From an uncultured archaeon (lineage in GTDB: Archaea > Asgardarchaeota > Lokiarchaeia > Sigyniarchaeales > SOKP01): a DNA stretch of 64,000 nt. The DNA lies in assembly GCA_964388035.1 (NCBI GenBank), contig CAYLZE010000006.1, positions 48,576 through 112,575 of the forward strand, read 5' to 3'. Shown piece by piece: positions 40,262 through 40,393 of the stretch; positions within the stretch are counted from its first letter, which is position 1, and each line of letters starts with the position of its first letter. The notes beneath the pieces were generated by a model. That model was not told the origin of the DNA, searched no databases, and saw only the letters and a program-made list of their open reading frames with translations. Made by a program: the position numbers and the translations under genes.

Positions 40262-40393
40262 ATGAGAATCGTAAGAAAAGAAAAGATTGCCTACGCCACA
40301 TGTAAATGTGGAGGGGATTGCTCCAGCATCCAAGCATGTAAGTGTGGTGGAGATTGCTCTGGTTTTTCGTGTAAATGTGGCGGGGATTGTTAA
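40262..40393 (+). CDS. 43-aa Cys-rich peptide with three CKCGGDC repeats (metallothionein-like or RiPP precursor)
   Basis: MRIVRKEKIAYATCKCGGDCSSIQACKCGGDCSGFSCKCGGDC*; repeats differ only at synonymous positions; AGGT upstream, T-rich tract downstream. Confidence 0.8.
   Translation: MRIVRKEKIAYATCKCGGDCSSIQACKCGGDCSGFSCKCGGDC
40301..40390 (+). repeat. Three 21-bp coding repeats TGTAARTGTGGNGGRGATTGY
   Basis: Copies start at 40301, 40337 and 40370. Confidence 0.9.

Follow-up and report, generated by a model that had tools for sequence, protein, structure and literature searches.

The closest published archaeal analogue of the locus described here is the CrpA/CrpC pair of Methanococcus voltae, in which an enzyme that joins a recognition element (RRE) for peptides that are made by ribosomes and modified after translation (RiPPs) to radical S-adenosylmethionine (SAM) and SPASM domains forms ranthionine thioethers in a large repeat protein (PMC13692751). 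CrpA contains ten 17-residue repeats with a C-x-x-Q/D motif, CrpC belongs to TIGR04463, and the cluster responds to the source of metal and sulfur (pyrite) (PMC13692751). We identified a small gene encoding a peptide with three CKCGGDC units in a 64,000-nucleotide stretch of DNA from an uncultured Lokiarchaeial genome (contig CAYLZE010000006.1, positions 48,576 to 112,575; this whole stretch is referred to as the window). The open reading frame (ORF), at positions 40262-40393 of the window, is a genuine conserved gene of some Lokiarchaeia (Asgard archaea). Judging from gene distribution and structural modelling, its product is very probably the substrate of an RRE-radical SAM-SPASM enzyme encoded at 49656-50921, and its promoter carries a predicted operator that is also found in front of cbiM, a gene of a nickel/cobalt importer. 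Like CrpA/CrpC, the system pairs an archaeal RRE-radical SAM-SPASM enzyme with a substrate that has a leader-like N-terminus and repeated cysteine motifs. However, the substrate is only 20-43 amino acids long and has no Q/D acceptor, and TIGR04463 is not among the best 25 of the 67 NCBIfam families that match the window enzyme, all 25 of which fall far below their cut-offs.

A similar organization is seen in the SCIFF peptides and the enzymes that mature them (ranthipeptides; CteA/CteB, PDB 5wgg and 5why), with a peptide of about 45 amino acids that has a basic leader and a cysteine-rich C-terminal half, an RRE-radical SAM-SPASM enzyme with two auxiliary clusters, and no dedicated protease or exporter. 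CteB is also among the best fold matches to the window enzyme. However, neither the peptide nor the enzyme has an NCBIfam match at or near cut-off. We take that library to include the SCIFF peptide and maturase models. The present system further differs from SCIFF in that the core is built of exact repeated CKCGxxC units, the genes are archaeal and confined to one Lokiarchaeial family, there is an additional partner protein of 81 amino acids, and the promoter carries a metal-type operator. The best overall fold match is SuiB, of the SuiB/SuiA streptide system (PDB 5v1q-5v1t; E ~6e-17 over ~450 columns), and the modelled binding of the leader to the RRE is of the same kind. The identity to SuiB is only 18%, however, and SuiB makes a lysine-tryptophan carbon-carbon link, whereas the peptide described here has no tryptophan.

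Metallothioneins (plant types 1 and 2, fungal, and bacterial SmtA) are likewise small and cysteine-rich. Cysteine makes up 30% of the core of the window peptide, with the CxC and CxxxC spacing of three CxCxxxC units, and regulation appears to be metal-linked; nine cysteines is also the number in the three-metal beta-domain of metallothioneins. Unlike metallothioneins, the peptide matches no metallothionein profile, has a conserved basic leader and co-occurs obligately with a radical SAM enzyme. By its sequence, it is not a member of the SCIFF family or of any metallothionein family. Bufferins, bacterial copper-sequestering RiPPs that contain cysteine, are exported with a signal peptide and modified by MNIO enzymes. 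They share with the candidate system the use of a modified cysteine-containing ribosomal peptide for metal homeostasis instead of antibiosis, but the system here is archaeal and would use a radical SAM enzyme.

The peptide gene consists of the following parts:

40262 to 40393, plus strand: peptide ORF from ATG to TAA, 43 amino acids, nine cysteines in the final 30 residues
40262 to 40300, plus strand: leader of 13 amino acids, rich in lysine and arginine; family consensus start MKIVKKEK
40301 to 40393, plus strand: core with three CKCGGDC units separated by linkers of five and then four amino acids, the last cysteine abutting the TAA stop codon
40414 to 40429, plus strand: runs of five and six T, an archaeal terminator-like signal

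This architecture agrees with the original prediction, which had described three exact CKCGGDC units whose DNA copies vary only synonymously. On re-reading the sequence, the three 21-nucleotide copies differ only at third positions (AAA/AAG, GGA/GGT/GGC, GGG/GGA, TGC/TGT), and every difference is synonymous. The neighbours are also as described, with a convergent Rce1-like/CPBP gene at 40661-41503 and the radical SAM gene at 49656-50921. The peptide ORF is present in a single copy in its own genome and is missing from a collection of 5.8 billion proteins, so that the label 'unannotated' is fair.

Pattern scans covered 400 genomes of the phylum, 135 of the window's own family, and 185,579 species genomes. 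We found 19 distinct intact orthologues, all of them in one Lokiarchaeial (Promethearchaeota) family, and three further variant forms were recovered by relaxed searches; the homologues that the original prediction proposed to look for in Asgard and other genomes thus exist, within this one family. Among the species genomes, 16 of the 18 matches to two CKCGxxC units spaced four amino acids apart belong to the peptide family, and a reversed control pattern gave no match in the 400 genomes, which argues that the CKCGGDC pattern is not due to chance. The remaining two of the 18 are unrelated cysteine-rich bacterial proteins, from metagenome-assembled genomes (MAGs) of Helicobacteraceae (L053) and Saccharibacteria (L058); one is a 102-amino-acid cysteine-rich open frame and the other the C-terminal tail of a 462-amino-acid open frame, and the paired motifs look like metal-binding tails. 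None of the 18 comes from a named culture. Single CKCGGDC matches in two genomes (G197 and G211) fall outside any comparable ORF and were put down to chance. A word search returned two 42-residue homologues from Promethearchaeota MAGs. The peptide has no match in Pfam or NCBIfam at E values up to 10, and a family profile searched against 1.84 billion representative proteins retrieved only two members of the family itself and no metallothionein or other relative. Gene callers overlook the peptide in most genomes, as these two representatives in that library indicate. A literature search found no paper describing the family.

In the consensus of the family, the leader starts with MKIVKKEK and continues for another five residues, and one to three C-K-C-G-x-x-C units follow, with linkers of one, three, four or five residues. 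The peptides always terminate at the last cysteine. Across the orthologues M1, K6 and K8 of the leader are invariant and K5 is nearly so. Short precursors in RRE-dependent radical SAM RiPP systems have a conserved leader that is distinct from the core, and so does this family, in which the core is made of CKCGxxC units. Not one amino acid change is seen at the C, K, C, G and C positions in the 56 units of the 19 distinct genes, although the synonymous codons are all in use (TGT/TGC, AAA/AAG and all four glycine codons). When units of the same gene are compared with each other, their codons show 217 synonymous and 13 non-synonymous differences, which indicates that unit identity within a peptide is kept by selection and not by recent gene conversion. 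Purifying selection at the protein level, which the original prediction had read from the three units of the window, is therefore strongly supported. The two variable residues of the unit differ among lineages (GD, GG, S followed by A, S or T, and DS), and mostly shift jointly across the units of one peptide.

The relaxed searches recovered a two-unit form with the sequence CKCGGDAC in a sister species, a one-unit form, and an interrupted gene. Given the one-unit form, a leader and a single C-K-C-G-x-x-C unit are a sufficient design. The suggestion that the peptide is a multi-core RiPP precursor is supported for the precursor part, but 'multi-core' may not fit, as there is a single-unit relative and no sign that units are cut apart. 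In the interrupted gene (genome G160, contig C162, ~440-640, minus strand; loci L124 and L126), a 30-nucleotide insert separates the CK from the CGGGC codons in both units. Each insert contains an in-frame TAA and can fold into a hairpin of ~10 base pairs with compensatory differences between the two copies, and its excision restores CKCGGGC exactly. No other copy of the insert is present in four genomes from the same genus, and the interruption could reflect a pseudogene, a mini-intron or translational bypass. In genome G159 the peptide gene occurs twice, on separate contigs (C124:2865-2942 and C275:25167-25244), one of which is beside the enzyme.

The enzyme and a small protein encoded directly downstream of it are located as follows:

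49656 to 50921, plus strand: RRE-radical SAM-SPASM enzyme of 421 amino acids, the putative maturase
50980 to 51228, plus strand: partner protein of 82 amino acids (~81 in relatives), with an alternative GTG start at 50965

We surveyed the 135 genomes of the window's family for orthologues of the peptide and the enzyme. The enzyme (49-60% identity) is present in 22 genomes, and 20 of these also carry the peptide. Two genomes have the enzyme without the peptide, one has the peptide without the enzyme (its contig stops 30 nucleotides after the peptide), and 112 have neither. Both genes are confined to the same eight of 13 genera and are missing from the two largest genera, which comprise 96 genomes. 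Because the surveyed genomes are related, the counts cannot be treated as independent events, although the pattern they form is very clean. The distance between peptide and enzyme is at most 0.8 kb, on the same strand or divergently, in 12 genomes; the peptide is found at 3-9 kb in four (including the window, at 9.3 kb), and on a different contig in four. In two relatives it is located 58-88 nucleotides upstream of a gene of ~420 amino acids that is 52-58% identical to the window enzyme. The original prediction had proposed that the peptide is the precursor of this enzyme and that the two should co-occur, and their distribution, together with their adjacency in most relatives, agrees with this. 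No cysteine-rich ORF that could be a second precursor is present directly upstream of the enzyme in the window. In the sister species with the CKCGGDAC form (G162:C38:66311-67459; L096) the enzyme is split into pieces of 373 and 73 amino acids, with one TGA inside the match, whereas the two-unit peptide appears undamaged; the split may stem from a frameshift, a sequencing error or early decay.

The enzyme contains the CX3CX2C motif of radical SAM proteins and seven further conserved cysteines in the SPASM arrangement. In an AlphaFold2 model with a pLDDT (predicted local distance difference test) score of 85, the N-terminal domain (residues 1-82) has the layout of an RRE, with beta-strands first and then three helices. 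Foldseek aligns the enzyme over its whole length with SuiB, CteB, SkfB and TigE, the best matches being SuiB, CteB and SkfB. By sequence, the nearest solved proteins are the peptide maturases SkfB, YydG, SuiB, PqqE and CteB. On the basis of the model, the enzyme has an RRE-radical SAM-SPASM fold. It belongs to no curated NCBIfam family, as the top score is ~111 bits where cut-offs are 180-850 and all models are far below cut-off; the PapB model, for example, scores 67 bits against a cut-off of 340.

Modelling of the leader with the RRE, which the original prediction had suggested, places the leader on this domain. The complex model, for which we supplied our own alignments of the enzyme and peptide and included three clusters and SAM, has an interface score (ipSAE) of 0.74 compared with 0.01 for the best of three controls. 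The mark applied to this score is attained by 58 of 80 solved complexes and by two of 110 mismatched pairs. The runs have at least 39% of contacts in common, and the pLDDT of the partner is at least 40. In the model, peptide residues 1-13 contact enzyme residues 30-35 (the third strand), 37-41 and 65-76 (the third helix). The invariant D35 and E37 of the enzyme belong to this interface and face the leader, in which K6 and K8 are among the invariant residues. The predicted interface is the canonical mode of leader binding to an RRE.

Clustering of the neighbours of all 22 enzyme loci showed that the gene for the ~81-amino-acid protein is located directly 3' of the enzyme in every one of the 22 genomes. 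A C-H-K-C ... E-C pattern is invariant in the protein. Identity is 55-85% among 71 database clusters, which are all of ~81 amino acids and either unnamed or misnamed; the few clusters with a source name are labelled Loki- or Promethearchaeota. It belongs to no family in Pfam or NCBIfam, fold comparison of a helical model (pLDDT 71) gave no convincing match (best Z 3.6), and an Atlas search returned nothing useful. The peptide, the enzyme and this partner form a three-gene module that corresponds to no named family and is so far restricted to Lokiarchaeia.

A second line of evidence comes from the promoter of the peptide gene, in which repeated heptamers are found:

40061 to 40088, plus strand: distal putative operator pair TCATACT-N14-TCATACT, exact, 28 base pairs
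40120 to 40147, plus strand: proximal putative operator pair TCATATC-N14-TCATATT, one mismatch, 59 nucleotides after the first pair
40130 to 40136, plus strand: an extra near-box within the proximal operator region
40167 to 40174, plus strand: TATA box TTTAAATA, starting 26 nucleotides after the start of the proximal box
30723 to 30750, minus strand: putative operator, the paired box TCATACT-N14-TAATATT, before cbiM/nikM of the window
29899 to 30618, minus strand: cbiM/nikM, with an ACG start

The promoters of the 19 peptide genes have a common design, with direct repeats of a TCATAYT heptamer exactly 21 nucleotides apart (TCATAYT-N14-TCATAYT). Paired boxes with this phasing are found upstream of nearly every orthologue, usually at about -105/-84 and often with a second pair at about -163/-142; the layout of two pairs is kept in relatives, 58 nucleotides apart. 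In the 160 nucleotides upstream of the 19 genes there are 47 boxes, compared with 1.2 expected. In 17 of the 19 promoters, the distance from the first nucleotide of the proximal box to a TTTAAA TATA element is 26 nucleotides. A run of five or more T (mostly six to ten) is found within ~50 nucleotides of the stop codon in each of the 19 orthologues.

When the box pair was used as a probe in genomes that seemed to have no peptide, it recovered two hidden peptide genes and matched the cbiM/nikM promoter twice. Among 30 cbiM loci of the family the pair (with at most one mismatch) is present in 26, where 0.24 would be expected by chance, and at least one exact box is found at about -110 in all 30. 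The pair precedes cbiM also in genera without the peptide. In the whole genome to which the window belongs, the peptide gene and cbiM are the only recognizable non-coding targets. Exact pairs on contigs C5 and C119 of this genome look like chance. Another exact pair (G000:C133:9098-9125; L110) has the same 26-nucleotide distance to a TTAAAT element. Behind it come a 19-codon ORF, which has no cysteine but begins in a way similar to the peptide leader, and then a run of ten T; the geometry is right, but the region is unconserved in any relative and the pair may be due to chance.

The importer in the window (30616-31123, 29584-32682) is a complete nickel/cobalt system of the energy-coupling factor (ECF) type, with cbiM and a PDGLE protein on the minus strand and cbiQ and cbiO divergent on the plus strand. 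In two genera cbiM is only ~2-10 kb from the peptide or enzyme genes (G000, G162, G167, G168, G169 and G173). This loose synteny fits a shared operator, but it could simply reflect conserved gene order.

In enterobacteria, the NikR signal is GTATGAT-N13/14-ATCATAC (PMC545781). The box pair described here resembles the NikR operators that precede nik and cbiMNQO genes in its length of 28 base pairs, its two 7-nucleotide half-sites separated by N14, its TCATAC core and its association with the promoter of a nickel/cobalt ECF importer (PMC545781). Unlike NikR operators, the half-sites are direct and not inverted repeats, and the peptide promoter has up to four or five boxes. A complete NikR homologue with a ribbon-helix-helix domain and a NikR_C domain (56.5 bits, above cut-off) is encoded on contig C13 of the same genome (G000:C13:~6472-7044; L158), and it contains an insertion of alternating histidine and glutamate. 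No TCATAYT pair is present near the NikR gene. By these similarities NikR is the leading candidate for the regulator.

The position of the boxes differs between the two promoters. In front of cbiM the second box abuts the TATA-like element, whereas in the peptide gene the boxes are upstream of the transcription factor B recognition element (BRE) and TATA box. A box over the TATA region is the usual position for a repressor, and a site upstream of the BRE and TATA box goes with activation, as for the archaeal regulators SurR and TrmBL1. The difference in position suggests opposite responses, with the importer off and the peptide on when the regulator is bound. As far as promoter sequences can tell, the box pair is an operator common to the peptide gene and cbiM, and the peptide very probably belongs to a metal-responsive regulon.

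On balance we favour a function as a metal-responsive, enzyme-matured, thiol-rich peptide that would buffer, store or pass on nickel or cobalt. This proposal starts from what is established, namely the selection on the peptide, its co-occurrence and linkage with the enzyme, the fold of the enzyme and the operator shared with cbiM. From these we infer binding, modification, the identity of the regulator, the metal and the direction of control. The leader would add a beta-strand to the RRE domain at the N-terminus of the enzyme by docking on it, and the enzyme together with its always-adjacent partner would modify the cysteine-rich core, most likely, by precedent, through thioether cross-linking. 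The product probably stays inside the cell with its leader still attached, because the conserved module holds no protease or exporter. Expression would start from the peptide's own promoter, with its two pairs of the 28-base-pair bipartite box just upstream of the TATA box. The peptide is probably under the control of the metal-sensing regulator of cbiM, because the same box lies over the cbiM TATA region throughout the family, and the bound regulator would turn the importer off and the peptide on.

A more specific version of this proposal, which we regard as possible but doubtful, is a nickel-responsive 'thionein' that needs maturation by the radical SAM enzyme. Each C-K-C unit would then form a thiolate/amide site, and the peptide would be turned on by the regulator that turns the nickel importer off. 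The nickel site of acetyl-CoA synthase is of this thiolate/amide type, formed by Cys-Gly-Cys. Such a peptide would be the first enzyme-modified metal-handling peptide system in Asgard archaea. The original prediction had set a metallothionein and a RiPP precursor side by side as two hypotheses; each was partly right, and they are not alternatives. In particular, membership in a metallothionein family finds no support from profile searches, but the operator that the peptide promoter has in common with the nickel/cobalt importer gene cbiM lends a metal-related role support that was not expected.

Several observations weigh against the reading that we favour. In the window, the peptide and enzyme are separated by 9.3 kb with unrelated genes between them, and no box was found in front of enzyme genes that are unlinked from the peptide. 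Two genomes have the enzyme only: in G154 the contig ends at the 5' side of the enzyme, but G275 is 97% complete and is unexplained. The complex model does not place the core with confidence, the use of our own alignments and of ligands is outside the calibration of the modelling tool, and its score may reflect memory, because complexes of an RRE with a leader (SuiB-SuiA, CteB-CteA) have already been solved. Besides cysteine, only lysine and glycine are invariant in the core, and no residue of the kind that serves as thioether acceptor in known ranthipeptides (Asp, Asn, Gln or Thr) is conserved. As known NikR sites are inverted repeats and the boxes are direct, the regulator may be a protein other than NikR. 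CbiM by itself cannot tell nickel from cobalt. Finally, it is solely the position of boxes in AT-rich DNA that suggests activation of one gene and repression of the other.

Neighbouring genes other than the enzyme and its partner appear to have little connection with the module. One has a variable link:

51230 to 52789, plus strand: flavin adenine dinucleotide (FAD) amine-oxidase/phytoene-desaturase-like oxidoreductase, beginning 2 nucleotides past the end of the partner gene

Only six of 22 genomes have its orthologue linked with the cassette, and the protein may be an optional tailoring enzyme. In one relative a flavodoxin gene adjoins the cassette. The original prediction had pointed to the convergent CPBP protease as a possible participant, but this Rce1-like gene is a singleton in the clustering of the 22 loci, none of 21 relatives has an equivalent gene close to the peptide, and we rejected it as a partner. 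Across the 22 loci only the enzyme and the 81-amino-acid gene are conserved, and no conserved protease, exporter or immunity gene is found near the peptide or enzyme. Genes for Ras-like GTPases, an AMP-binding enzyme, Dus, an IF-2B-like protein, a hydrolase, DUF1848 and a rhodanese-metallo-beta-lactamase protein are unrelated neighbours that are not kept with the module. A weak ZIP-like match beside the peptide of one relative is under its cut-off.

Other explanations must be considered for a short cysteine-rich peptide in this context. The peptide could be a plain, unmodified metallothionein-like protein that binds metal through its nine thiolates, with the radical SAM cassette being only a frequent neighbour that acts elsewhere, for example on the 81-amino-acid protein. 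The cysteine content and spacing of the core favour this reading, as do the CKCGxxC pairs in the cysteine-rich tails of unrelated bacterial proteins (L053 and L058) and the operator shared with cbiM. Additionally, the peptide is not beside the enzyme in the window and seven other genomes, and the 81-amino-acid protein is linked to the enzyme more tightly than the peptide is. However, the genome-by-genome co-occurrence with the enzyme is nearly perfect, there is no metallothionein profile match, and a simple thionein would have no use for the conserved lysine-rich leader, the part that the complex model puts on the RRE. We consider this explanation unlikely.

The combination of a leader, a cysteine-rich core and an RRE-radical SAM-SPASM enzyme is also the design of sactipeptides and ranthipeptides, and together with the patchy distribution among genera it would suit a secreted antimicrobial or signal, in the manner of the quorum signals derived from SCIFF. 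Such a product is improbable at this locus. Its core would be expected to diversify and is instead almost invariant, the operator of a metal importer would be unexpected on the promoter of a bacteriocin, and protease, exporter and immunity genes are lacking among neighbours that are unrelated housekeeping genes, the CPBP gene being unique to the window. The same lack of a protease or exporter would be compatible with a precursor of a peptide-derived redox cofactor or an iron-sulfur-type carrier, as for mycofactocin and pyrroloquinoline quinone, in a pathway that would include the 81-amino-acid Cys/His protein, in which C-H-K-C ... C is always present, and the FAD oxidoreductase linked in six of 22 genomes, and the flavodoxin beside the cassette in one relative points the same way. 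However, the number of identical units varies from one to three, as is not usual in precursors of cofactors, most loci lack the FAD enzyme, and the PqqE and MftC models score far below their cut-offs, which makes a cofactor precursor very improbable.

The comparative evidence presented here supplies a candidate precursor for the RRE-radical SAM enzyme at 49656. It also describes a new three-gene module in Lokiarchaeia, a group in which little is known of peptide natural products or metal homeostasis, and exposes an annotation gap, as the small peptide gene is overlooked by gene callers in most genomes. Lokiarchaeia depend on hydrogenases and on CO dehydrogenase/acetyl-CoA synthase, and nickel is therefore important to them. 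The operator in common with the nickel/cobalt importer suggests a physiological role for the peptide. If its product is a modified metal-binding peptide, RiPP-type enzymes would act on intracellular metal buffers.

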